From Mariprofundus sp. (GTDB taxonomy: Bacteria > Pseudomonadota > Zetaproteobacteria > Mariprofundales > Mariprofundaceae), in contig JAUZQK010000064.1 of the NCBI GenBank assembly GCA_030951025.1, positions 8 through 24,007 of the forward strand: a DNA stretch of 24,000 nt. Reading direction: 5' to 3'. Shown here one piece after another: positions 13,582 through 24,000 of the stretch. A model generated the notes under the pieces. That model saw only the letters and a program-made list of their open reading frames with translations. It ran no database searches and was not told the origin of the DNA. The position numbers were made by a program, and so were the translations under genes. Position 1 is the stretch's first letter, and each line of letters begins with the position of its first letter.

Positions 13582-14154
13582 TTAGAATTTTCGAAACTGG
13601 CCAACGACTTCGCCATAAATATCGAGTGATGTTTCGGGATAGATATTGGGATAATCTTCATTGGCAGGCTCTAAAAACGGGCCTTTTGAGCCGGTGCGCA
13701 GATACTTGATGGTAAAATCACCATCGACAATGGCCACGACAATTTTGCCGATATTGGGATTGATATTGCGCTCAACAATGAGGAAATCGCCACCATGAAT
13801 GCCGGCATGAATCATCGATTCGCCACGCACTTCAACCAATACCGTGCTGGATGGGTTTTCAACCAGATAGTCATCAATGGTGATGGCATCGCCGAGTGCT
13901 TCGGTGGCAGGGCTAGCAAAACCAGCCGGTGCAACGCCAACATGCGGGCGCGCAAAAAACATATTGGCTGGCGACAAACGACCACCCGGAGCCTTGCTGA
14001 TATAGCCGGCAAAAATCATGCGATCAATAAACTTCACCGCACCCTGTTTGCTGACACCTACCAGTGCGGCTATTTCTGCATAGGATGGAATTAAGCGATG
14101 CAGGGCATAATAATCTTGTAGTCGTCCGAGATAGAAAGGATCTTTATTCACCAT
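13582..14154 (-). CDS. LexA-family repressor (N-terminal winged-HTH, C-terminal S24 self-cleaving peptidase domain)
   Basis: 190 aa. The N-terminus resembles the LexA DNA-binding wHTH (IPSYAEIAALVGVSKQGAVKFIDRMIFAGYISK). Candidate Ala-Gly scissile bond in GVAPAGFASP (A77-G78). Ser nucleophile in VRGESM (S113). Lys in DFTIKYL (K150). It is not the canonical gammaproteobacterial LexA sequence, so it may be a second or accessory paralog. Confidence 0.85.
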   Translation of the reverse strand: MVNKDPFYLGRLQDYYALHRLIPSYAEIAALVGVSKQGAVKFIDRMIFAGYISKAPGGRLSPANMFFARPHVGVAPAGFASPATEALGDAITIDDYLVENPSSTVLVEVRGESMIHAGIHGGDFLIVERNINPNIGKIVVAIVDGDFTIKYLRTGSKGPFLEPANEDYPNIYPETSLDIYGEVVGQFRKF

Positions 14155-14182: not shown

Positions 14183-14282
14183 TTCGCAAGGGTTGATCAT
14201 TCGTATGATTCATATCCATCCGCATCAATGCTATCAATCTGTGACATTAGGAATATTATAAAGATGAAAAACTACATATGCC

Positions 14283-14299
14283 GAAACGGGCACCGTTTC
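14283..14299 (-). terminator. Possible terminator hairpin after the six-gene operon
   Basis: GAAACGG-gca-CCGTTTC (7-bp stem) located 19 nt past the PhoD-like stop. On the minus strand a TTTTT run follows only after an 11-nt gap, so this is non-canonical. An alternative pairing with CGAACGGG (14309-14316 region) is possible. Confidence 0.3.
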
Positions 14300-14317: not shown

Positions 14318-16189
14318 CTAGCTCGGAATCAAATAGGTGAGTTCCTGCAACGCCCCATCAGCCAGAACCGATTTCAATTTCTGTTTGGTTGCGCGCCCCT
14401 CATCAAACCAGACCTGAGCGATATTATTCATACCCGTAATGGCCACATGCTTACCCTCAAGCGATTCCTGCGAAGCCAAAAAGTTATAGCCCTGCACAAG
14501 CTTGCTCTGATCGCCAATCGTGATGCCGGGGTTGGTGTTGTGCAGCGGGCTACTGGTGAGCTGAACTGCGGGAATGCGATTCCCCAGCATCGCCGTCCGT
14601 GCAAAGGAGTAATGCACATCGCCAGATAGAAACGTGACAAAATTCAGTTTGCTCTCCTCCGCCAGCATGGCTTCAAGAGAGCGGAAACCGGCCACCCATG
14701 ATTCTGCATCCAGCGCAGCTAATGAACCGGGGATGAGTTTCATCAGTGATAAAGCCGCGCCCTGCACACCTTCGACAAAGCGAAAGCCAAACACGGGGGT
14801 CGGCGAAATAAGGCAAATCGAATCACAATCCTTTACCGCCTGCTTTATCTCATCAGCCAATTCATCCAAGGCCTCGGCATGCATGAGTTTCGCAGGCTGT
14901 TGATGATAGAGTTTGCGACAAGTGCGCGTATCCATGGCGATCACAGCAGGCTGAGTTGGCGTGGAAAAAAACCATCTACCCGGTTTTGATGCCCAAAGCA
15001 GAGCATCGTACTGTTCCGCATCATCGCCATCATGGCGATGGGCATTTAAATGCTTCTCCAGCAGTTCAATGAAACCTTCGCTAAAGCGCTCAGGGTCATT
15101 CCCCCAAGCCTGAAAAGCCCAATACGATGCCAATGCATTGGCGACAATTCTGCGCGTACGCGGGCTTTTGCCTTGCACTTGCTCAACCCAATCACGGGAA
15201 ATATTCCAGTCATCAGTAACTTCGTGATCGTCACACTGCATATATACCGAAACATTAGCCAATAGTCGGCGCACTTCGGGCAGCGTTTGCGCAAAAGCCT
15301 CCAGATTTTTTTTCTCTTCCCGATAATACCTTTTTGAAATACGATGATTGAACTGGTGTTTGACTGCCTGCCAGTCCTGAAATTCAGGCTTTGCCCCCTG
15401 ACCTCCAAACGCACACAAATACATTGCCGCGTACTCACCAAATGTCATCAGGTGGTTATCCGTCGCCCCCGACGAAAAACCTTCATGCTTACCATTCAGG
15501 TTCCAACTCACCTCTGGAGCCCGGTGATACAGCTCTACGTCGCACACCTTATGTGCATCATTTGCCGTGTGATATCCCCCATCCATCGGCAGCCGCCGAC
15601 GCGGCATGGTCTCATCCCATCCTGTCACGTCTCTGCCGAGCCCTATGAGATGCCAAAGCATGGCTCCACCAACATCATCGGCATAAATCTGATCGCCGGT
15701 CATCAACAGCATGGAAGGGCGATTGACTGAATCATCAATCGTATCACCTACAACCTTGGATCCTGTTGCCAGTTGATCTCGCGAGCCCCAATCACGATGC
15801 ACGGCTGCGGCATGCGGTTTACGGCAAGAGCCATGCAATATATTTTTCAGCTCTCCCGGCACGATAAAGCTGGGATACGATTCGCCCGGATAACAAAAAT
15901 CATCATTACCATGCAACAGGCTGTTAGCATTTTCAATGAGATCGTAGTGCAGAATATTTTCTGCATAGGATGCATCCTGCCAGTCCAGCCAGATGATATG
16001 CACAAACAGGTGTTCGCCCATGCGCGCCGTACGCTGTGTGGATTGAACATTCAAACCATGCAGCGACCCGTCTGCCTTACGCTTAAACACCGCCCCGGAA
16101 AAGTCTCGGGGTTCTGTTGTTGCCACCCATATTGCCACCTTTTGTAGCTCAGTACGCCGCACAATCGGCCCTGCCAGAAAGTCACTCAT
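14318..16189 (-). CDS. PhoD-like metallophosphatase / phosphodiesterase, no Tat or Sec signal (predicted cytoplasmic)
   Basis: 623 aa from the ATG at 16189. PhoD_N-like start GPIVRRTELQKVAIWVAT. Metallophosphatase motifs LHGSCRKPH, LLMTGDQIYADDV, CDDHEVTDDWN and LSGDVHYSF. The ATG overlaps the upstream KAP gene's stop by 8 nt (ATGAGTGA, 16182-16189). Confidence 0.8.
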   Translation of the reverse strand: MSDFLAGPIVRRTELQKVAIWVATTEPRDFSGAVFKRKADGSLHGLNVQSTQRTARMGEHLFVHIIWLDWQDASYAENILHYDLIENANSLLHGNDDFCYPGESYPSFIVPGELKNILHGSCRKPHAAAVHRDWGSRDQLATGSKVVGDTIDDSVNRPSMLLMTGDQIYADDVGGAMLWHLIGLGRDVTGWDETMPRRRLPMDGGYHTANDAHKVCDVELYHRAPEVSWNLNGKHEGFSSGATDNHLMTFGEYAAMYLCAFGGQGAKPEFQDWQAVKHQFNHRISKRYYREEKKNLEAFAQTLPEVRRLLANVSVYMQCDDHEVTDDWNISRDWVEQVQGKSPRTRRIVANALASYWAFQAWGNDPERFSEGFIELLEKHLNAHRHDGDDAEQYDALLWASKPGRWFFSTPTQPAVIAMDTRTCRKLYHQQPAKLMHAEALDELADEIKQAVKDCDSICLISPTPVFGFRFVEGVQGAALSLMKLIPGSLAALDAESWVAGFRSLEAMLAEESKLNFVTFLSGDVHYSFARTAMLGNRIPAVQLTSSPLHNTNPGITIGDQSKLVQGYNFLASQESLEGKHVAITGMNNIAQVWFDEGRATKQKLKSVLADGALQELTYLIPS

Positions 16190-18578
16190 ATCTCCCCCCC
16201 TTCCATTTTCCACCATTGACCATCACAGCAATTGCTTTAGCTGTAAGTGGTGAAATGACATCCCCATTCTTCAGCTTGCATCCAGCCGTTATTTTCTTTA
16301 ATGATTCATGGCCAATTAAAGCATGCAGATAATCGGGTAACTGATGCACGCCCGACTCTTTCTCAGTCGCGGCAGCTGCGGCAAATACCTGAACCTGGTC
16401 AGGAAAGCGCGCAAGATATTCCGCCACTCGGGGAAATCGAACTTCAAGGATAGTCCAGAGCGCCACTTGATCCAGAAAAGCCTCATCCATATCGAGAACG
16501 CCGCTTACCCTTGCTAAATTCACATACACGCCAAACGCATTCACTATCAACTTCATACTTCTCGGGTTGGCATCCATCAAATCAACAAAGCGTGTGAGCC
16601 GGTGCCGGTTTGCAGTCGCAAAGCTTTCAGTCTTCGCCGCTTTAATCACTGCGGCAGCAATCATAGCCTGTTTATGAATAACAGTTTTCGGCTCACTGCG
16701 CATATAGTCATTGAGTTCAGATTCACTGGATACATTTTGAATCTCTTTTTCTACAACGGCATAAGCCTCATCAAAACTTACTACAGAATCACTTTTCTCT
16801 CTCGATGTGATTTCATCCATAAACGACACTTTCAATTCAGCCGAGATCGGCGGCAATGCAACACTTAATTGAAACAACTTCTCCAGAAAGCGATAACCCG
16901 TTGGCTGTTCAACCTGCGCAATTTTACCGTTGAATGTTTCATAGCCCTCCTCAAAGCAGGCCGATATCCAGGTTCGATCAGCCGCGACCAGGAAAAATAC
17001 TTTTGGATGAGAATACAGTGTGTGAAGACTCTCCAATAATTCAATGACATAAGAGCTTTTGCATCGATCCAGATCATCAATAAACACGATGACAGGCCTG
17101 TCAAACCCATCAACCATTTTTCTGTAATAGGAACGAATCTTTTCCATCGGATCGGAAGACAAACGTCTAAACATGTGAGCTGAAGCAGCAAAGCCTGGCA
17201 TGAGTTTGCTCAACAAAACCGCAACGGTACTTGCTAAAGCAAGAATCGATGCAATCGACTTCATGACATCTCCGCCCAACGTTAATGCTAATCCAAGCAG
17301 CACCAGAATTGTTGCCAACATTATAAAAACAGGTCGCCTATCCCCTTCCTCAATTCGATACCAGTAATTTTTCCAGTGCAATTCTTTACTGTTTGGTGCG
17401 CCTTTTATGCCCTCTTGAACAATCCGATCCAACAACCCCCACCAGGGCGGGTCGACATGTTGGTTCCTCCATGCATTAAAATGGATACCAATCCATGGCC
17501 GTTGCACTTTGCTCTCATCATGCAGGCATTGATCCAACTGATGCATAAATGTTGTTTTACCTGCTCCCCAGCGTCCACAAAGGTGCAGAACAAAACTATC
17601 TCCTTTGATACTTTGCCCAGCCTCAACAGGTAAATTTAGAGATTCATGCCACAGACGATCCAACCAGCGTGCTAAATATTCCGCGAATGCAAATCTGTTA
17701 AATGAATCATGTTCAGAAGGTTGATCGGAACTAATAATAGTTGCATTCGACAGCAGTTCTGAAGGAGCAACCCGCGTGCCTCCCCCATCAATAAGCTTGT
17801 TAAGCTTCTCTGCAACTTGTTCTGGAACTTTGAATACTGTGCCCTGAGGGCTGCGAAGAAACTGAAATTCATCCTTCTGAATGGACTCAATCACCACATC
17901 TCTGGATATTATTGGCTCCAACCATTTTACCGGCAAGGAAAGACGAACATCCTTCTTGGGCGTTTCTGACTCCTCTCCTTTGTCTGTAAATTCGAGATGG
18001 CTAATCTCCCCCCAAGCGACCATACCGCTTGCAGCTCGGTTGTGCTTACGCTCATCTTCATCCTTGAAGGCTCGCCAAAGAAAAAACACATCGCCAAGCT
18101 GCATCTCGTCCTGAAACCGGTTTATACGCCAAGGCACTGCCTCCCCCTGTTTCGCCGATTCCAGCCAGTCCGTTTTTTCATCATCCGGCTTATACTGAAA
18201 TAACCAATAACGCTTCACATGCTTTTCAGTCGTTCCATCATTGAATTCGGGCGATAGCTCTGGAGCTGTCCTATCATTTCTCTTCTTTTTCTTCGATGTT
18301 TTATCTTTCCTGATGCTCTGAATATCAGAGCCTTGTGGCTGAAACTTCTGATGCGATTCAGTTTCAAAACGCATCAACATAGCCTGCGTATCCGGCCCCA
18401 CAATACCATCAGCAGACAAACCATTCTTAGCCTGGAACTCACCCACAACATGACCGGTACGCTTACCAAACACACCATCCGGCTCACCCGCATCGAAGCC
18501 TTGCTGGCGAAGTAATTCCTGCAAGGCTTTCACCTGATCACCCTCTGACCCTTCGCGCAATACCCGTTCACTTTCCAT
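16182..18578 (-). CDS. Multidomain KAP-family P-loop NTPase: N-terminal PG_binding_1-like domain, EVE/PUA-like domain, KAP NTPase with an inserted TM hairpin
   Basis: 798 aa. PGB-like domain at aa 5-71 (EGDQVKALQELLRQQGFDAGEPDGVFGKRTGHVVGEFQAKNGLSADGIVGPDT). EVE-like domain at aa ~122-262 (RYWLFQYKPDD..W..RF..MQLGDVFFLW..GMVAWGEI..FLRSPQGTVFKVPEQ). Walker A GRWGAGKTT (nt 17550-17576). IHFNAWRNQ. Two hydrophobic helices at aa ~415-460 (nt ~17199-17336) lie between Walker A and Walker B. Walker B VIVFIDDLDRC (nt 17061-17093). A TM insertion in the P-loop domain plus a DDLDRC-type Walker B is the KAP hallmark. Confidence 0.85.
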   Translation of the reverse strand: MESERVLREGSEGDQVKALQELLRQQGFDAGEPDGVFGKRTGHVVGEFQAKNGLSADGIVGPDTQAMLMRFETESHQKFQPQGSDIQSIRKDKTSKKKKRNDRTAPELSPEFNDGTTEKHVKRYWLFQYKPDDEKTDWLESAKQGEAVPWRINRFQDEMQLGDVFFLWRAFKDEDERKHNRAASGMVAWGEISHLEFTDKGEESETPKKDVRLSLPVKWLEPIISRDVVIESIQKDEFQFLRSPQGTVFKVPEQVAEKLNKLIDGGGTRVAPSELLSNATIISSDQPSEHDSFNRFAFAEYLARWLDRLWHESLNLPVEAGQSIKGDSFVLHLCGRWGAGKTTFMHQLDQCLHDESKVQRPWIGIHFNAWRNQHVDPPWWGLLDRIVQEGIKGAPNSKELHWKNYWYRIEEGDRRPVFIMLATILVLLGLALTLGGDVMKSIASILALASTVAVLLSKLMPGFAASAHMFRRLSSDPMEKIRSYYRKMVDGFDRPVIVFIDDLDRCKSSYVIELLESLHTLYSHPKVFFLVAADRTWISACFEEGYETFNGKIAQVEQPTGYRFLEKLFQLSVALPPISAELKVSFMDEITSREKSDSVVSFDEAYAVVEKEIQNVSSESELNDYMRSEPKTVIHKQAMIAAAVIKAAKTESFATANRHRLTRFVDLMDANPRSMKLIVNAFGVYVNLARVSGVLDMDEAFLDQVALWTILEVRFPRVAEYLARFPDQVQVFAAAAATEKESGVHQLPDYLHALIGHESLKKITAGCKLKNGDVISPLTAKAIAVMVNGGKWKGGRYE

Positions 18579-18614
18579 CAGTCATTCCACCATAGTTCAA
18601 CATCACACATCGGG

Positions 18615-19502
18615 TTACAAGCTGAGCAACATGTCGATGAGATCAGCTTGCGGAAACAAATCGAATTTATCCTTTCTAATATTGCCATGCGTCCACATGC
18701 CTTTGATTTTACCGTTGTATGCCTGTGCGTTATATTCAAAGGCTTGAGCACCCTTTTGTTTAATTGCAGCAACCAGGCCAGCGCGCACATCAATCGAGTC
18801 ACGCTCGGCAATCCATAAAATAAATGCCTTGAGCGTTTCAATTTGTTTATCTGAATAAGCATGCCACTGGCGATGTCCCCGAAATGGCTTGGCCAAGGTC
18901 ACGATTTGATCGGCGACAATAGGTGTTCCCACATAGGTTTTCCCACCCTTGGCATAACTGAAATTACAGACCTCAATCGCCGCTGAATGTGTATGCATGT
19001 GCTGCGAGCCGTTTTTACCCAGATGCCAGCCGTAACCGCCTTCCGGCACACATTGCAGCAACTCACCATCATAACGATCATCATTGCCTTTAACGGAACG
19101 GCCACCGAGCACAAACTCCGTTGCAATTGTACCGCGATTATCCTTCGCCCAACCATCCACAGTATGATACGGATTATGCCAGCCAGCAGTATGATGCAAA
19201 AACAAATATGCCTTGGCTGTCGGCCCTGCCAGATATTCGCCTTTGGGCAGAAAGTATTTATGCACCAGTAGGTCTTCTGTGGCCGCATACACTCTCTCAG
19301 AATTATCCGTTGTGGCATGATTCTCTCGAATAGCCGCAAGCGTTTGTGAGCCAACGATCCCATCAACCATCAAACCATGCTCCTTCTGGTAGGCTTCGAC
19401 TGCCTGCTTGGTTCCTGCTCCAAACACCCCGTCATCTGCAATGCCTAAGGCCTGTTGCAACTCAATCACCTCTCGCCCTCTTGAGCCCTGTCTTAATAAC
19501 AT
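18615..19502 (-). CDS. N-acetylmuramoyl-L-alanine amidase (Amidase_2 / T7-lysozyme-PGRP fold) with an N-terminal PG_binding_1 domain; endolysin-like, no signal peptide
   Basis: 295 aa from the ATG at 19502, which has AGGAGG 8 nt upstream. The track start at 19589 is a GTG without an SD. PGB: LLRQGSRGREVIELQQALGIADDGVFGAGTKQAVEAYQKEHGLMVDGIVGSQT. Amidase_2 motifs FLHHTAG (Zn His), HSAAIEVCN and WTHGNIRKDKFDLFP (C-terminal His/Asp-Lys motif). Confidence 0.85.
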   Translation of the reverse strand: MLLRQGSRGREVIELQQALGIADDGVFGAGTKQAVEAYQKEHGLMVDGIVGSQTLAAIRENHATTDNSERVYAATEDLLVHKYFLPKGEYLAGPTAKAYLFLHHTAGWHNPYHTVDGWAKDNRGTIATEFVLGGRSVKGNDDRYDGELLQCVPEGGYGWHLGKNGSQHMHTHSAAIEVCNFSYAKGGKTYVGTPIVADQIVTLAKPFRGHRQWHAYSDKQIETLKAFILWIAERDSIDVRAGLVAAIKQKGAQAFEYNAQAYNGKIKGMWTHGNIRKDKFDLFPQADLIDMLLSL

Positions 19503-19618
19503 CGCAATCACCTCCTGAAGTGTTAAATTTACTTCTTCTATCTTGCCTGAAAGAACATCAACCAAAATCAGTCTAGCGCACCACTTCACGCATTCGATAA
19601 AGTATTAATAAATCCTCA

Positions 19619-21274
19619 TCACGTGGCCTCTAGCGATAACATGCGACGCTCCTGTTTTTCAAACCCGATGATGATCGGCGCCCATTGTTTGATGCTTTTG
19701 TATAAGCGCAACAAAGCCATGAGCAGTGCTGGCCAGCCCGTAAATATGCTTTTTTTGATCAAATCGATAACCAGCTTGAGCAGCGATGCTAAAAAACCGC
19801 ATGAGACGGCAAACATGGAAGATTTATTCTCCAGGTAAGCGGCTATCTTGCTGACATCATTTGCCTGTGCGAACTCATATACCAGCGTTGTAAAGTCGAA
19901 ATCATTATCCCTATGCATCCGCAATACAGGAATGTTTGAATTAATATTGAGGCCGCGCATAGGAAACTTAATTTCTTTTCTAGCAAAAAAAGCCAGTGAT
20001 CCTGTCACTCCCGAAACAACCGCCTGAAGTGCTTCAAATGAATTACGAATATAAAGATAAGCGACTCGAGACAGGTTTTTAAGCATTGCCTTGACCGAAG
20101 ATACCGCCTTTTTAAGCATGGTCTTAAACCAAGCCCACGCCCGTTTAATACCATCCCACATCCGTGCGCCAATGGAATAGATATTATCCCACATTTCCTG
20201 CACAACAGATTTCATGTTTTTCTTTGGACTCCTGCTTTTAGCCAGTTTTTTTATTTCCTGATAAACGTCTTCTGACTCGGTTGGCATCACCACGTCAGCG
20301 GCTATAAGGCGCTGTGAAATACTGGAAAAAAACTTAGGGTACGTTAATTTGATCAGCCCCATCGCTTTTGATTTCGCCTTATCAGACGTGGTTCCAAGGC
20401 TTGTCCAATACACGAGCAACTGCTTATAAAGCTGGCTCTTCGCCTTTAAATCCAAGCCATTTGCTCGCATGCTATTGGCACTTCCCCCCGTATATCCTTT
20501 AGGACGAATATTATAACCAAGCAACCACAGCTCGATCTTGGCCATAGCGACAATAAATGGTTTGATTGTTTTTTTATGCTCAACACCTTTAGGGATTTGG
20601 CCTGATGCAAGCCTGGCTACCATTTCATCCTGATCAAAAAGTAGCTTCAGCGTTGCCAGACTCACAACACTTAAACCCGCAGCGTCCGCCCACCCCAACA
20701 CCTGAGCAAGCTTAGAAAAGCCCGCTAATGCGTCATTTAGCAAATCAATCAGCAAATCAATCGTGACCATGGTTTTTAAGTGGCCGGGGGCTCGAGAGAC
20801 CAAACCCAACGCATAAAGTCTCAGGTATGCTGCTCGTATCAAGGCATCACATGGCTCACCCTTAACAAACCATTTCTCCAAATTTGATGCTTCCTCAAAA
20901 CTCACCATTTGCTGCAACGCCAGCCAGGTTTTTTCGCCCACCCAGCCATCAGCCTTGAGACTACTGATACCAAAGGCATCATGTTGAAACAGCTTCACAC
21001 CAGCCTGATAACTTGCATCAAGCTGTGAAGGTACGGAATCAGTATCAAGGTAACCCAATAAAAAAAGCCTATTGGCAATCACTTTTAAGCGGGAATTTGA
21101 ATATGCAGAACGCGATCCACCAGGATTCGATTCGGGTAACGGCGTAATAATTTGATCATCACCAGCTTGAAGCATGGCCTGCTCTAACAAACCATATTGT
21201 TTAACCATATCTCCCTCATCCGGCAAACCACTCAAGCAAGCAGGAGAAATAGTTAAATCGACACGTTGGGGCAT
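19619..21274 (-). CDS. Hypothetical 551-aa protein with PGB-like helical repeat(s) and a hydrophobic or amphipathic C-terminus
   Basis: aa 64-122 (VIANRLFLLGYLDTD..YQAGVKLFQHDAFGISSLKADGWVGEKTWLALQQ) resembles PG_binding_1. Weaker LxxLGY-type repeats occur at aa ~145-195 and ~245-295. The C-terminal aa ~484-537 is hydrophobic (MFAVSCGFLASLLKLVIDLI, FTGWPALLMALLRLY, WAPIIIGF). The start ATG shares one base with the upstream stop (TAATG, 21272-21276). Confidence 0.6.
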   Translation of the reverse strand: MPQRVDLTISPACLSGLPDEGDMVKQYGLLEQAMLQAGDDQIITPLPESNPGGSRSAYSNSRLKVIANRLFLLGYLDTDSVPSQLDASYQAGVKLFQHDAFGISSLKADGWVGEKTWLALQQMVSFEEASNLEKWFVKGEPCDALIRAAYLRLYALGLVSRAPGHLKTMVTIDLLIDLLNDALAGFSKLAQVLGWADAAGLSVVSLATLKLLFDQDEMVARLASGQIPKGVEHKKTIKPFIVAMAKIELWLLGYNIRPKGYTGGSANSMRANGLDLKAKSQLYKQLLVYWTSLGTTSDKAKSKAMGLIKLTYPKFFSSISQRLIAADVVMPTESEDVYQEIKKLAKSRSPKKNMKSVVQEMWDNIYSIGARMWDGIKRAWAWFKTMLKKAVSSVKAMLKNLSRVAYLYIRNSFEALQAVVSGVTGSLAFFARKEIKFPMRGLNINSNIPVLRMHRDNDFDFTTLVYEFAQANDVSKIAAYLENKSSMFAVSCGFLASLLKLVIDLIKKSIFTGWPALLMALLRLYKSIKQWAPIIIGFEKQERRMLSLEAT

Positions 21275-21654
21275 TATTTATTTGAGCTAAGCCCAACCAT
21301 ACCGCCAAACAACGCCAGCAACCCATGTCTGGTATCAATGCCCGCCTTCACCGATGCGGCATGCACTTTCTGAATGTGTTCTTGAAAATCACCCTCAGGC
21401 ACCAGGTTAATCGCATCGCCATCACACATCATCTTGGTCACTGCACATAGCTTCAGGTTATTGCCCGTCGCTTTTGCAGCTGCCAGCAGATCTGTAATAC
21501 TTTTAAGTTTCCCATCATCACCCAACGCCGTATCAACGGCCACATCGATTGAACCGGTATAGGTTTGCACCTCAAGTGAAGACATATCTTCCAAAAAGTC
21601 ACCAATTGATTCCAACCCTCTGGTCAGCTTTCCTTTTGTATCAGGCATATCCAT
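21274..21654 (-). CDS. Hypothetical protein (126 aa, or 124 aa from the ATG at 21648)
   Basis: ORF with AGGAG immediately upstream. Spacing favours the second ATG at 21648. Its stop overlaps the next gene's start. Acidic and soluble-looking. No family recognised. Confidence 0.55.
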   Translation of the reverse strand: MDMPDTKGKLTRGLESIGDFLEDMSSLEVQTYTGSIDVAVDTALGDDGKLKSITDLLAAAKATGNNLKLCAVTKMMCDGDAINLVPEGDFQEHIQKVHAASVKAGIDTRHGLLALFGGMVGLSSNK

Positions 21655-21669
21655 CTCCTATTGTCGTGG

Positions 21670-22014
21670 TCACTTCATTTGATTTCGAAAAGCGGCCACA
21701 TCTTTTGCGAAATCACTACAATACACAGCAATACTCTGATTAAACTGTTCAATACCATCAGAATTATTGGCTATTTCATGTTTTAAACGTTTGCCATCTG
21801 CAACCCGCAAAACATCAGAGGCAAGCAACCTTAAATTCCGAGATAACTCAGCATATTTTAGATATTCATCGTAACTGGCTGGCTGCTTGATTCCCTTGCT
21901 TCGCCCCACGAAATCGCCAACGAAGGTACGCACCACGACCTGTTGTGTATGACCTCGTCGTAGCCATCGCTTCATTTTCGCCAATATATTCTGGAATCTA
22001 TTCATCGTAGACAT
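21670..22014 (-). CDS. Hypothetical protein (114 aa), first gene of the operon
   Basis: ORF with a purine-rich GAGAGAGGGG upstream of GTG-ATG. ATG at 22014 taken as the start. Basic N-terminus (KMKRWLRRGH). No family recognised. Only 15 nt separate it from the next ORF. Confidence 0.5.
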   Translation of the reverse strand: MSTMNRFQNILAKMKRWLRRGHTQQVVVRTFVGDFVGRSKGIKQPASYDEYLKYAELSRNLRLLASDVLRVADGKRLKHEIANNSDGIEQFNQSIAVYCSDFAKDVAAFRNQMK

Positions 22015-22066
22015 CACCCAGCCCCTCTCTCAAAGCTCAATGCTGCACATAGATATTAAAATGTAT

Positions 22067-22084
22067 GTCCCATAAATATGGGAC
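22067..22084. promoter_or_regulatory. Perfect palindrome GTCCCATA-AA-TATGGGAC between the uup stop and the operon start (operator and/or uup terminator stem)
   Basis: 8-bp inverted arms with a 2-bp centre, 9 nt after the uup stop (22093) and about 50 nt upstream of the first operon start codon. On the minus strand it is followed by ATACATTTTAATATC. Confidence 0.4.
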
Positions 22085-22092
22085 AAAGATGC

Positions 22093-24000
22093 TTAACCGT
22101 TGAGAGATTCCTGTTTGCTTTCGATGGTTTCCCAACGCGCATAAGTGGTTTCTAGCTGCGTTTCTAATTCACTTAAACGTGACTGATCCCGTTTAAAAGC
22201 CTCCGCATTCAGGGTGAAATAATCAGGCTCACAAAAACGTGTTTCAATGGCTGCCTTTTCTGTTTCCATTGCTTCGATTTCGCCAGGCAGGTTTTCCAAT
22301 TCGCATTGCTCTTTGTAACTGAGCTTGATCTGTTTCCGGACTGGCTTTTCGGCAACAATAGACTTTGGAGCTTTGATGATCTGCTGCTCTAACGCAGCCG
22401 CTTCCAAACGCCGTGTTTTCCAAGCTAAATAATCAGAGTACCCGCCTTCGATGGGGATAATTTGACCACCGCCTTCAAAAGCCAGCACGCGGGAAGCCAC
22501 CCGATCCATAAAGGCGCGGTCATGCGATACAACAATCACCGTTCCATCATACTTGGCCAGCGCCTGTTCCAGCACAGTCAGCGTACCGATATCCAGATCA
22601 TTGGTCGGCTCATCGAGCACCAATAAGTTCGCAGGCTCCAATAGCAGCCTGGCCAACATCAAGCGACCACGTTCACCGCCGGAGAGCGCCTTCACCGGCG
22701 TATTCATGCGCTCTTTGTCAAACAGAAAGTCCTGCATATACGAAACAATGTGGCGCGGCTCATGACCGCCCAGATGCACATAGTTGCCGCCTTGCGGTAA
22801 CAGCACCTCTTTCAGCTTTAGTTTTTCATCAAGCTCCCGCATCTGGGTAAGAAAGGCCGGAGCCAGACGCACACCGTGGCGCACCCTGCCTGCATCCGCT
22901 TGCATCTCACCGAGCATCATCTTCAGCAGCGTCGTCTTACCGATTCCGTTAGCTCCAACAAAGCCGACACGATCACCGGACATGATTTTATGACTAAATG
23001 CCTTGCAGATCACCGTATCACCAAAGCTGTGTGTGAGCTCCACGGTTTCAATCAGCATCTTGCCGACCTTCACACCGGATGAAACGCGCAGCTCCACATC
23101 ATTGCTGCGCAGCCGCCTGGCAGCACGCTGTCTACGCAGTTCCTCTAAGCCGCGCACACGCCCTTCATTGCGAGTCCGACGAGCCGGTATACCCTGTCTG
23201 ATCCAGCGCTCTTCACCCGCCAGCATTTGATCAAACTTGCGATGCTGGCTCGCTTCCACCGCCAGCATCTCAGCCTTTTTCTCCAAGTACTCGGCATAGG
23301 AATACGGGAAATGGGTCAAATGCCCACGATCCAGTTCAATGATTTCTTCAGCCACGGCATCTAAAAAATAACGATCATGGGTAATAAATATGACCGAACC
23401 CCGAAATGCTGCAACAAAATCTTCCAGCCATTCAATCGATTCAATATCAAGATGATTGGTGGGCTCATCGAGCAACAACACATCCGGCTCGGACACCACC
23501 GCGCGCGCCACCGAAACCCTGCGCAACCAGCCACCGGATAATTCACCGACATCACGATCCGGATCCAGGTTCAACTTGGAAATAGCAGTTTCAATACGGT
23601 TATGAAACTGCCATGCGCCGCTACGTTCCAGCTCGGCCTGTAGCTCATCAATCTGTTTCAACACCCGCTCAGAGCAATCGGTCTCCAGAGACTGCAAGGC
23701 ATGGTGATAATCTTCCAGGGTTTGCGCCACGCTGCCCAAACCCTCTGCCACCACATGAAACACCGTTTGACCGGCATCAAAGTGCGGCGCTTGCGGCAGA
23801 TAGGCTACCCTGATTCCGCTGCGCAGCGTCACCTGACCGGCATCACATTCCAACTCACCCGACATGATTTTCAATAGCGTCGATTTACCCTCGCCATTGC
23901 GGCCAATCAACCCGATGCGCACCCCGCGCCCTACACTCAGGCAGACAGCATCGAGCAACACCTGTGGCCCATAGGATTTATCAATGTGGTTTAAGGTCAT
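22093..24000 (-). CDS. uup: ABC-F family ATPase Uup (two ABC ATPase domains, C-terminal coiled-coil DNA-binding tail)
   Basis: 635 aa, the same length as E. coli Uup, and collinear with my recollection of it. Two Walker A motifs (GRNGEGKST, GANGIGKTT). Two signature motifs (LSGGWLRR, LSGGERGR). Two Walker B motifs (LLLDEPTNHLD, LVLDEPTNDLD). Linker RRTRNEGRVR. The ATG occupies 23998-24000 at the window edge, so the start cannot be confirmed from upstream context. Confidence 0.93.
   Translation of the reverse strand: MTLNHIDKSYGPQVLLDAVCLSVGRGVRIGLIGRNGEGKSTLLKIMSGELECDAGQVTLRSGIRVAYLPQAPHFDAGQTVFHVVAEGLGSVAQTLEDYHHALQSLETDCSERVLKQIDELQAELERSGAWQFHNRIETAISKLNLDPDRDVGELSGGWLRRVSVARAVVSEPDVLLLDEPTNHLDIESIEWLEDFVAAFRGSVIFITHDRYFLDAVAEEIIELDRGHLTHFPYSYAEYLEKKAEMLAVEASQHRKFDQMLAGEERWIRQGIPARRTRNEGRVRGLEELRRQRAARRLRSNDVELRVSSGVKVGKMLIETVELTHSFGDTVICKAFSHKIMSGDRVGFVGANGIGKTTLLKMMLGEMQADAGRVRHGVRLAPAFLTQMRELDEKLKLKEVLLPQGGNYVHLGGHEPRHIVSYMQDFLFDKERMNTPVKALSGGERGRLMLARLLLEPANLLVLDEPTNDLDIGTLTVLEQALAKYDGTVIVVSHDRAFMDRVASRVLAFEGGGQIIPIEGGYSDYLAWKTRRLEAAALEQQIIKAPKSIVAEKPVRKQIKLSYKEQCELENLPGEIEAMETEKAAIETRFCEPDYFTLNAEAFKRDQSRLSELETQLETTYARWETIESKQESLNG

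Follow-up and report, generated by a model that had tools for sequence, protein, structure and literature searches.

How does a protein that carries a peptidoglycan-binding (PGB) domain and no visible export signal reach the cell wall, or does it act elsewhere? This question is raised by six minus-strand genes in a stretch of 24,000 nucleotides from the iron-oxidizing marine bacterium Mariprofundus sp. (assembly GCA_030951025.1, contig JAUZQK010000064.1, positions 8 to 24,007), which is referred to here as the window. The genes form a rare candidate operon between an uup-like ABC-F ATPase gene (22093-24000) and a LexA/UmuD-like gene (13582-14154), and they encode orf115, orf126, orf551, an amidase, a KAP-family P-loop NTPase (KAP) and a PhoD-like metallophosphoesterase (Table 1). 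The original prediction, whose coordinates for the KAP, amidase and orf551 genes are correct, described these three as consecutive PGB proteins without a signal peptide and offered two explanations: release through a membrane lesion, or sensing of muropeptides or wall precursors in the cytoplasm. Our analysis of the sequence and of related loci suggests that the operon is most likely a switchable self-lysis or anti-phage device. The reading that we prefer, to which we give a little less than an even chance, is that the cell keeps a cytoplasmic store of lytic enzymes and lets them out through a triggered membrane lesion, with KAP as the gate.

The longest open reading frames (ORFs) of the three PGB genes are preceded by in-frame stops at a distance of 1, 5 and 1 codons, so that none of the proteins can have a longer N-terminus; the alternative upstream starts encoding leaders that the original prediction had listed as evidence against it are thereby ruled out. 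Leaders were called with a hydropathy heuristic that included positive controls. The maximal 10-residue hydropathy within the first 40 amino acids was at most 2.1 in 26 orf551-family, 38 amidase-family and 9 KAP-family sequences (73 in total), compared with 3.3 and 3.9 for two genuine leaders in related loci. The absence of a leader on KAP, the amidase and orf551 was therefore upheld. Matches to the PG_binding_1 profile PF01471 (gathering score, used as the cut-off, 23 bits) were found for 3 of the 6 operon genes and for 0 of the 10 flanking genes scanned. The domain is strong in KAP and in the amidase, where it sits at the extreme N-terminus as described; in orf551 it begins at about residue 60, is degenerate and scores below the Pfam cut-off, so that the claim of three consecutive PGB proteins stands for two of them and is weakened for the third. 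The arrangement is not due to chance, because it recurs in the related loci L003/L135 and L010/L013 and, without KAP, in L138 (labels of L plus a number denote related loci compared with the window).

Homologues were sought among 5.8 billion protein clusters, 185,579 species genomes and the viral contigs of IMG/VR. For the amidase, the missing leader proved to be no paradox, because the leaderless state is the rule in its phage endolysin family. An exhaustive HMMER search recovered a family of proteins of ~300 aa that open directly with the PGB domain (199 representatives below 1e-30), and the viral contigs hold 583 relatives, the best 80 of which are 48 to 64% identical to the window protein over aa 1-295. 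The endolysin analogy drawn by the original prediction thus holds over the full length of this protein. Of 79 viral amidase loci, 47 have a small transmembrane (TM) ORF on the same strand at a distance of no more than 1.5 kb; two of the ORFs that come directly after a viral amidase show weak similarity to a holin PHROG, and a gene for a phage ribonucleotide reductase lies nearby. Five residues (H103, E177, H272, K279 and D281) are conserved in the family, and four of them (H103, H272, K279 and D281) are putative Zn-ligand or catalytic residues; their H...KxD pattern presumably resembles the Zn site of the AmpD/AmiD clade. The solved structures nearest to the catalytic domain are AmpDh2, AmiD, XlyA and AmpD, the match to AmpD itself being marginal (E 0.006), and the PGB domain matches KZ144 (phiKZ gp144), the endolysin 7rum and also SleB and L,D-transpeptidases. 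Substitutions relative to two orthologues fall mostly at third codon positions (85/130 and 147/220). By its family, the enzyme is classed as an ordinary leaderless phage endolysin and is predicted to be muralytic. It looks like a captured gene, since the KAP subfamily, the PhoD-like protein and orf551 have no relatives on viral contigs.

The translation start of the amidase is almost certainly ATG 19502, as judged from an AGGAGG sequence 8 nt upstream and from the MLL[RK]QGS-type N-terminus that is common to the L003 and L053 orthologues and to 37 family members. The same two features ruled out a start at GTG 19589, which would add 29 residues with a short hydrophobic patch. No holin or spanin gene was found in the operon and no phage genes nearby; between 14200 and 22100, the only small TM (holin-like) ORFs are non-conserved ones in alternative frames. 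One of these, a 155-aa ORF with a strongly hydrophobic stretch (18899-19366, minus strand), lies inside the amidase gene. It was considered as an embedded holin in the +1 frame and rejected, since stops interrupt this frame in both L003 and L053 and the pattern of substitutions is that of the amidase frame.

For KAP, the topological anomaly is genuine. Walker A and Walker B are separated by two hydrophobic helices, which confirms the TM hairpin noted originally. Access to the NTP pool is required of both Walker motifs, so the helices must fold back as a hairpin, which leaves the entire N-terminus of the protein in the cytoplasm. No TM segment separates the PGB domain from the EVE domain and the NTPase core; the linker between PGB and EVE is polar and Lys-rich and lacks a hydrophobic segment. 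This topology predicts that the PGB domain of KAP is cytoplasmic at rest. A topology in agreement with it was reportedly proposed by Aravind et al. in 2004, when the KAP family was defined. PGB-resolvase fusions were considered as a precedent for a cytoplasmic PGB domain and set aside, as a signal peptide and a TM segment separate the PGB domain from the enzyme in those proteins.

The solved structure nearest to the KAP PGB domain is that of phiKZ gp144 (E 7e-12), and other endolysins, SleB and L,D-transpeptidases also match. The domain is present in 6 of 9 family members, retains both DGxxGxxT-type motifs and shows roughly the same degree of conservation as the remainder of the protein. EVE domains are readers of modified nucleic acid. 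An EVE match likewise occurs in 6 of the 9 KAP family members (best E 1.9e-5), and the EVE-KAP fusion is clear in the distant locus L031 (E 5e-12). The PGB-EVE-KAP form is rare, with six protein clusters among the 5.8 billion; orthologues at 60% and 47% identity keep EVE and the NTPase and have no PGB domain. Both Walker motifs are invariant in nine homologues. Comparison with defence-system profiles in PADLOC gave partial matches to PDC-S20 (1e-23, 82.6 bits, profile positions 6-234 of 464) and to the PifA model (5e-18, 63 bits, positions 37-272 of 720), neither of which has a curated cut-off, and a match to QatA (9e-18). Membership in the Qat system was rejected, since the QatA score is 60.4 bits against an NCBIfam cut-off of 600 and the operon contains no QatB, QatC (QueC-like) or QatD (TatD). 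KAP NTPases are validated antiphage proteins (PMC13552941); PifA leads to membrane depolarization and nucleotide leakage, and the N-terminal regions of KAP proteins are thought to act as sensors (PMC13001434). No KAP relatives were found on viral contigs, and the partner genes were found in none of 38 loci with distant metagenome relatives (~25-39% identity, L014-L051). A trypsin-NucA fusion (L024) and a type I restriction-modification S subunit adjoin distant KAP relatives. In L012 (6569-10280), a patatin phospholipase directly precedes a 31%-identical KAP without EVE or PGB, which suggests that KAPs of this subfamily pair with varied envelope-directed effectors. Neither the PGB-EVE-KAP architecture nor its fixed association with endolysin and leaderless PhoD-like partners was described in the literature searched.

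The assignment of the PhoD-like protein rests on a PF09423 match of 30.9 bits against a cut-off of 27, on a stronger match of an orthologue (43.6 bits, E 2.7e-11, profile positions 73-329) and on the motifs GDQIY (GDxxY), DDHE and GDVH, read from the sequence. A Tat signal, as in Bacillus PhoD, is absent: the N-terminus MSDFLAGPIVRRTELQK has no hydrophobic core, its RR pair precedes TELQK instead, and the longest ORF is preceded by a stop at a distance of 2 codons. The gene follows KAP in L003, L010, L011, L053 and L135. No relatives were found on viral contigs, and comparison with PDB sequences gave no match.

The remaining PGB-like protein, orf551, belongs to a different setting. Residues 64-120 match PF01471 with 17 bits (E 0.007), under the cut-off, and about a third of its 25 homologues among the protein clusters carry a precomputed PF01471 match. 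The AlphaFold model (pLDDT 82, pTM 0.80) places the PGB helices at 60-72, 87-105 and 114-124, and a local Foldseek match to a Bacillus phage amidase was obtained (probability 0.96, rank 25). Only the second DGxxGxxT-type motif is retained (conserved DGWVGExTW); the first is lost. No global fold match was found in PDB or BFVD and no relatives on viral contigs. The hydrophobic C-terminus noted by the original prediction exists as moderately hydrophobic helices (hydropathy 1.3-2.2 in the family), yet these contain charged residues and are packed in the compact model, unlike classical TM segments. Purely by analogy, the protein might conceal a hairpin like that of colicins or Bcl-2. The protein also weakly matches PHROG tape-measure proteins (best E 4.5e-5, aa 290-445); a tape-measure function was rejected in view of the weakness of these matches, the compact model, the lack of viral relatives and the lack of tail genes in most loci.

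A homologue of orf126 precedes every orf551 homologue for which upstream sequence exists. The orf126 family comprises 38 homologues, all unannotated, and its AlphaFold model is poor (pLDDT 52), from which we suppose that the protein may fold only in a complex. The product of the first gene of the set, orf115, is distantly paralogous to orf126 (hhalign probability 94%, E 1.4e-7); in both, an N-terminal helix leads into a strand with the motif V-x-T-[FY]-x-G, and orf115 has no match in Pfam, PHROG or PADLOC. The species genomes hold 27 orf551 loci, and the orf126-orf551 pair occurs in Zetaproteobacteria, several Desulfobacterota, a Chloroflexia metagenome-assembled genome and Teredinibacter, often without the amidase, KAP and PhoD-like genes. 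From gene order and spacing, the region is read as one transcription unit assembled from two modules, A (orf115/orf126/orf551) and B (amidase/KAP/PhoD-like). There is consequently no support for regarding the three PGB proteins as a single phenomenon, as originally supposed, since orf551 belongs with orf126 to a separate, independently distributed module.

Comparison of the related loci showed which parts of the arrangement are exchanged. Module B with the amidase recurs in L003/L135 and in L053/54, in the latter of which the same amidase precedes KAP. In L010/L013, module B instead has a pesticin/T4-lysozyme-like muramidase with half a PGB domain, beside a KAP without PGB. In L138 (1-4308), the amidase is directly followed by the PhoD-like gene with no KAP between them, so that KAP is not indispensable for keeping the other genes together. 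Taking Zetaproteobacteria and two Desulfobacterota lineages together, the genes that come after orf551 homologues encode leaderless hydrolases that fall into five unrelated catalytic types: Amidase_2 in the window, L003/L135 and L138; a pesticin-like lysozyme in L137, L139 and L010, with the slot in L013 likewise holding the muramidase; a leaderless protein of 446 aa that combines Amidase_3 with a lysozyme-like domain in L008 and L142; PGB plus CHAP in L147; and Peptidase_M15_3 in L144. No close relatives of the lysozyme were found on viral contigs. Because non-homologous wall hydrolases displace one another in one slot, degradation of the sacculus appears to be the selected function, and because a muramidase needs polymeric glycan, the substrate is placed in the periplasm. 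When enzymes lack a leader yet have their substrate in the periplasm, regulated release is indicated, and a device resembling phage lysis is for this reason the best supported. That the orf126-orf551 pair tracks leaderless hydrolases was not described in the literature searched.

Other genes share these neighbourhoods. Lipases are found as patatin in L004 and L012 and as Tle1-like enzymes in L003 and L137. In two Mariprofundus genomes (L003, 11671-14648, equivalent to L135, 4363-7358), three extra genes stand between orf551 and the amidase; their products are a leaderless lipase of the Tle1-like (DUF2235) kind, an apparent outer-membrane beta-barrel protein of 321 aa that has a signal peptide and ends in Phe, and a protein of 92 aa containing a single hydrophobic segment. 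Two other NTPases of sensor type, a 1220-aa STAND protein with NACHT and HEAT repeats (L148, 11663-15325) and a 1747-aa DEAD plus UvrD double helicase (L150, 9777-15020), lie directly downstream of orf126-orf551. In Zetaproteobacteria bacterium CG1_02_53_45 (L143, 2568-11640), the pair heads a cluster resembling an extracellular contractile injection system (eCIS), with genes for sheath, tube, a T4_baseplate-like protein, a Pvc16_N cap, an AAA+ ATPase and CIS_tube, and sheath/tube remnants adjoin the pair in L008 and L142. No such genes (sheath, tube, baseplate, spike, cap or AAA+ ATPase) were found in the window. A protein of ~350 aa with a DUF6765 domain (E 4e-109 and 5e-50) is encoded directly upstream of orf126-orf551 in the Desulfobacterota loci L150 (6447-7505), L153, L154 and L159, and also directly upstream of a distant KAP in L034 (7013-8170). 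By these positions, DUF6765 is a candidate third uncharacterized family linking both modules; no literature and no solved relative was found for it. Further upstream of DUF6765-orf126-orf551 in L150 (2486-6281), L154 and L159 are genes for a glycyl-radical enzyme (PFL-like) and a radical-SAM activase, which probably reflect unrelated synteny.

Under the stockpile-and-release reading, module B would be a KAP-centred conflict system, either anti-phage or for programmed lysis, with KAP anchored in the inner membrane by its hairpin. Its partners, a captured phage-type endolysin and a PhoD-like phosphoesterase, would both be made without export signals, and these enzymes would do no harm while cytoplasmic, in the manner of phage endolysins until the holin acts. 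Once KAP, or a different NTPase in other lineages, had sensed a trigger, a membrane lesion would arise, made by the KAP hairpin, by orf551 or by both; modified nucleic acid is a plausible input, offered by the EVE domain. The hydrolase would then reach the sacculus, bind it through its PGB domain and lyse the cell, which would abort an infection or release phage-tail-like particles. The PGB domain of KAP would be an accessory that engages the wall after the lesion or holds the endolysin near the lesion site. The overlapping or tightly spaced genes, bounded by terminator-like sites, were counted in favour of this reading. So were the lipases and sensor-type NTPases near the pair, the defence-profile matches of KAP, the antiphage activity of KAP relatives, the leakage caused by PifA and the precedent of LypABC (PMC13236601), which suits the nearness of eCIS genes.

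Several observations weigh against it. The operon has no holin-like small TM gene, and its sole hydrophobic alternative-frame ORF is not conserved. No classical TM helix is present in orf551, whose model has the compact look of a soluble bundle. The formation of a lesion by KAP would be an extrapolation from PifA, which is distantly related and has no TM helices. The PGB domain of KAP has no necessary role under this reading and is missing in L009, L010, L011 and L013, and KAP itself is missing in L137, L138 and L139. Module B in L053 does not have module A directly upstream, and the two modules may simply be neighbours in an island and not one machine. Finally, a lysis model leaves the function of the PhoD-like protein unexplained. 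Of the two explanations first proposed, release through a lesion is nevertheless the better supported, on account of the interchangeable Amidase_2, muramidase, Amidase_3, CHAP and M15 enzymes, although the data point to no lesion-maker and no holin gene.

The second explanation, in which PGB domains act as cytoplasmic sensors, is weakly disfavoured. The PGB domain of KAP, and perhaps the others, would bind soluble muropeptides or wall precursors, in the way of AmpR or NOD1/NOD2; the AmpD-clade amidase would degrade this ligand and thereby determine the threshold, and KAP would fire as wall damage or blocked synthesis raised the ligand level. The resting position of the KAP PGB domain, its two retained motifs, its ordinary degree of conservation and the structural neighbours of the amidase catalytic domain are all in keeping with this, as is the proposed sensor role of KAP N-terminal regions (PMC13001434), in which the PGB domain here adjoins the EVE reader. 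We nevertheless regard ligand sensing as unlikely. The KAP orthologues without PGB still have the PhoD-like gene in L010, L011 and L013 and a hydrolase in L010 and L013, the orf551 domain is degenerate, the amidase is a typical phage endolysin with a marginal match to AmpD, and it is exchanged in its slot for a muramidase, which cannot act on monomeric muropeptides. It is more improbable still that the KAP domain is specifically a receptor for wall-derived molecules, read alongside EVE and with the amidase setting the threshold; its ligands would be such as anhydro-muropeptides imported after phage wall damage or precursors from blocked synthesis. To our knowledge, the intracellular reading of wall-derived ligands is established for AmpG-AmpD-AmpR and NOD1/NOD2 alone, and we know of no case in which PG_binding_1 binds soluble muropeptides in the cytoplasm. 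Somewhat less unlikely than ligand sensing, though still doubtful, is the co-option of the three-helix PGB bundle as a protein-protein module that tethers the endolysin, and perhaps orf551, to KAP in the cytoplasm, with parallels in the effector-associated domains (EADs) of NTPase conflict systems and in the pro-domain of matrix metalloproteinases. The same domain stands at the N-terminus of an NTPase and of the neighbouring effector, as described for EADs, and EAD1 is known fused to lysozyme and peptidoglycan-peptidase effectors (PMC7159879). There is also a loose match between partners, in that KAPs with PGB accompany an amidase with a full PGB domain (the window, L003/L135 and L053/54) and a KAP without PGB accompanies a lysozyme with half a domain (L010/L013). 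The KAP domain is, however, not the closest relative of the amidase domain and has a longer, KZ144-type loop; in L052, a KAP with PGB has no hydrolase within the ~450 bases of upstream sequence present; and a tether would not require the wall-binding consensus motifs to be retained.

Two further alternatives look beyond the cell or beyond function. The leaderless PGB proteins, lipases and PhoD-like protein could be cargo or components of a contractile injection system, or of something similar, that act in the periplasm of another cell. This would account for the lack of Sec or Tat signals. The eCIS-like cluster headed by orf126-orf551 in L143, the sheath/tube remnants in L008 and L142 and the weak tape-measure matches of orf551 point the same way, as do known tape-measure-related effectors and a PGB protein linked to contractile injection systems (PMC11126660) and the Tle1-like lipases, which are classic type VI secretion effectors. 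We hold this to be improbable, given that injection-system genes are absent from the window and from most other orf551 loci, that no immunity gene stands beside the amidase (the gap to KAP is 36 nt), that a membrane-anchored NTPase is not cargo and that orf551 has no viral-contig relatives and is predicted to be compact and not an extended tape measure. The least probable of the alternatives is that the three PGB genes are leftovers of a decayed prophage or tailocin lysis region, grouped by chance in a variable island and serving no integrated function. The phage derivation of the amidase, the varying content of the island between uup and thiI and the remnants beside the pair in L008 and L142 would suit such a history. 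It is opposed by the intactness and translational coupling of all six ORFs, by the excess of third-position substitutions in the amidase gene, by the invariant catalytic and Walker motifs, by the absence of KAP and PhoD-like family members from viral contigs and by the maintenance of the same gene set across lineages at 55-97% identity.

Each element of the operon is of a known kind (phage endolysin, KAP defence NTPase, PhoD). The amidase resembles the canonical, holin-dependent endolysins of Gram-negative phages with N-terminal PG_binding_1, such as phiKZ gp144 (KZ144), in having a leaderless N-terminal PGB domain followed by a C-terminal muralytic domain; unlike phage endolysins, it is encoded in a chromosomal operon with KAP and PhoD-like genes and without phage, holin or spanin genes. 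KAP shares with the KAP-family antiphage NTPases (PifA of the F plasmid, EF_KAP and relatives, the PADLOC candidate PDC-S20 and QatA) the P-loop core, intact Walker motifs, inserted TM helices and variable accessory domains, and differs from them in its N-terminal PGB and EVE domains, its conserved endolysin and PhoD-like partners and the absence of QatBCD. The 'System 3' of Kaur, Burroughs, Iyer and Aravind (2020) likewise combines a regulated NTPase, leaderless lysozyme or peptidoglycan-peptidase effectors and an N-terminal module common to its components (PMC7159879), and the trypsin-NucA fusion beside the distant KAP relative in L024 is of System 3 type; here, however, the common module is PG_binding_1 and not EAD1 or Death-like, and the NTPase is KAP and not STAND. 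In Caulobacter, the CARD-NLR-like system LypABC is an immune-type NTPase lysis hub for the release of gene transfer agents (PMC13236601). The likeness would lie in the use of an immune-type NTPase for lysis that releases phage-derived particles, orf126-orf551 adjoining eCIS genes in three loci; the components are unrelated (LypABC has peptidases and an NLR-like ATPase), and LypABC lysis is non-explosive and endolysin independent. With AmpG-AmpD-AmpR and NOD1/NOD2, the operon would have in common a cytoplasmic Amidase_2 enzyme and the recognition of wall fragments in the cytoplasm, but it has no AmpR-like regulator and its similarity to AmpD is marginal.

Table 1. Features of the candidate operon and of its proteins, in window coordinates
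Feature	Residues (aa)	Position	Strand	Details
orf115		21670-22017	-	first gene of module A; small protein
orf126		21274-21654	-	small protein, obligate partner of orf551
orf551		19619-21274	-	leaderless all-alpha protein, rare family
orf551 PGB-like three-helix module	~60-124	20903-21097	-	degenerate
orf551 C-terminal helices	~485-547	19634-19822	-	hydropathy 2.04; embedded K/D/R
PGB + Amidase_2 enzyme		18615-19502	-	295 aa; longest ORF 18615-19589
Amidase PGB domain	1-60	19323-19502	-	PF01471, 49 bits, E 7e-13
Amidase catalytic domain (Amidase_2)	~99-295	18618-19208	-	
KAP-family P-loop NTPase		16182-18578	-	798 aa; PGB-linker-EVE-KAP (TM hairpin)
KAP PG_binding_1 domain	13-68	18375-18542	-	62.3 bits, E 5e-17
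KAP EVE (PUA-like) domain	123-259	17802-18212	-	PF01878, 23.6 bits vs cut-off 23, borderline
KAP NTPase core	326-688	16515-17603	-	PF07693, 102.5 bits vs cut-off 20, E 3e-29
KAP Walker A, GRWGAGKTT	335-343	17550-17576	-	
KAP TM hairpin	~417-461	17196-17330	-	hydropathy up to 2.64
KAP Walker B, FIDDLDRC	499-506	17061-17084	-	
PhoD-like metallophosphoesterase		14318-16189	-	623 aa; no Sec or Tat leader
Promoter-like site upstream of orf115		22004-22033	-	consensus match only
Terminator-like hairpin after uup		22066-22085		consensus match only
Terminator-like hairpin directly 3' of the PhoD-like gene		14278-14293	-	consensus match only

Within the operon, the stop codon of orf126 overlaps the start of orf551 (TAATG), and the end of KAP and the start of the PhoD-like gene overlap by 8 nt; the remaining gaps in the six-gene set are 15, 36 and 116 nt. 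The hairpin 3' of the PhoD-like gene likely marks the end of the transcription unit, by its position; the total of promoter- and terminator-like sites is no higher than the shuffled expectation. Relatives of the operon genes come almost all from Zetaproteobacteria (Mariprofundus). In related genomes, a variable island lies at the same insertion site, between uup and thiI. The other genes of the window are housekeeping genes (tig, clpP, clpX, lon and thiI) plus a PAS histidine kinase. The LexA/UmuD-like gene directly downstream of the operon, on the minus strand, encodes a 190-aa S24 peptidase with an N-terminal DNA-binding-like region and has its own promoter-like site (14255-14284, 10/12 consensus matches). 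It is missing at the equivalent position in L003 and L010, where thiI is directly next.

The apparent paradox is thus largely dissolved for the amidase, and the topology of KAP and the gene pair that tracks wall hydrolases are real, testable leads. If stockpile and release through a KAP-gated lesion is correct, a domesticated phage endolysin would be the executioner of a suicide or particle-release device, and the previously unnoticed orf126-orf551 pair would be a candidate non-holin route to the wall for leaderless hydrolases of five types across phyla. How the 'cytoplasmic' wall-hydrolase effectors of conflict systems reach their substrate would then become directly testable. Should the sensor reading hold instead, KAP would be the first case in bacteria of a cytoplasmic sensor that makes use of a wall-binding domain, and a counterpart of innate sensing of the NOD1/NOD2 type. 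The validation of KAP NTPases as antiphage proteins is recent, and the operon gives the family a set of defined partner genes together with clear options for testing by mutation.

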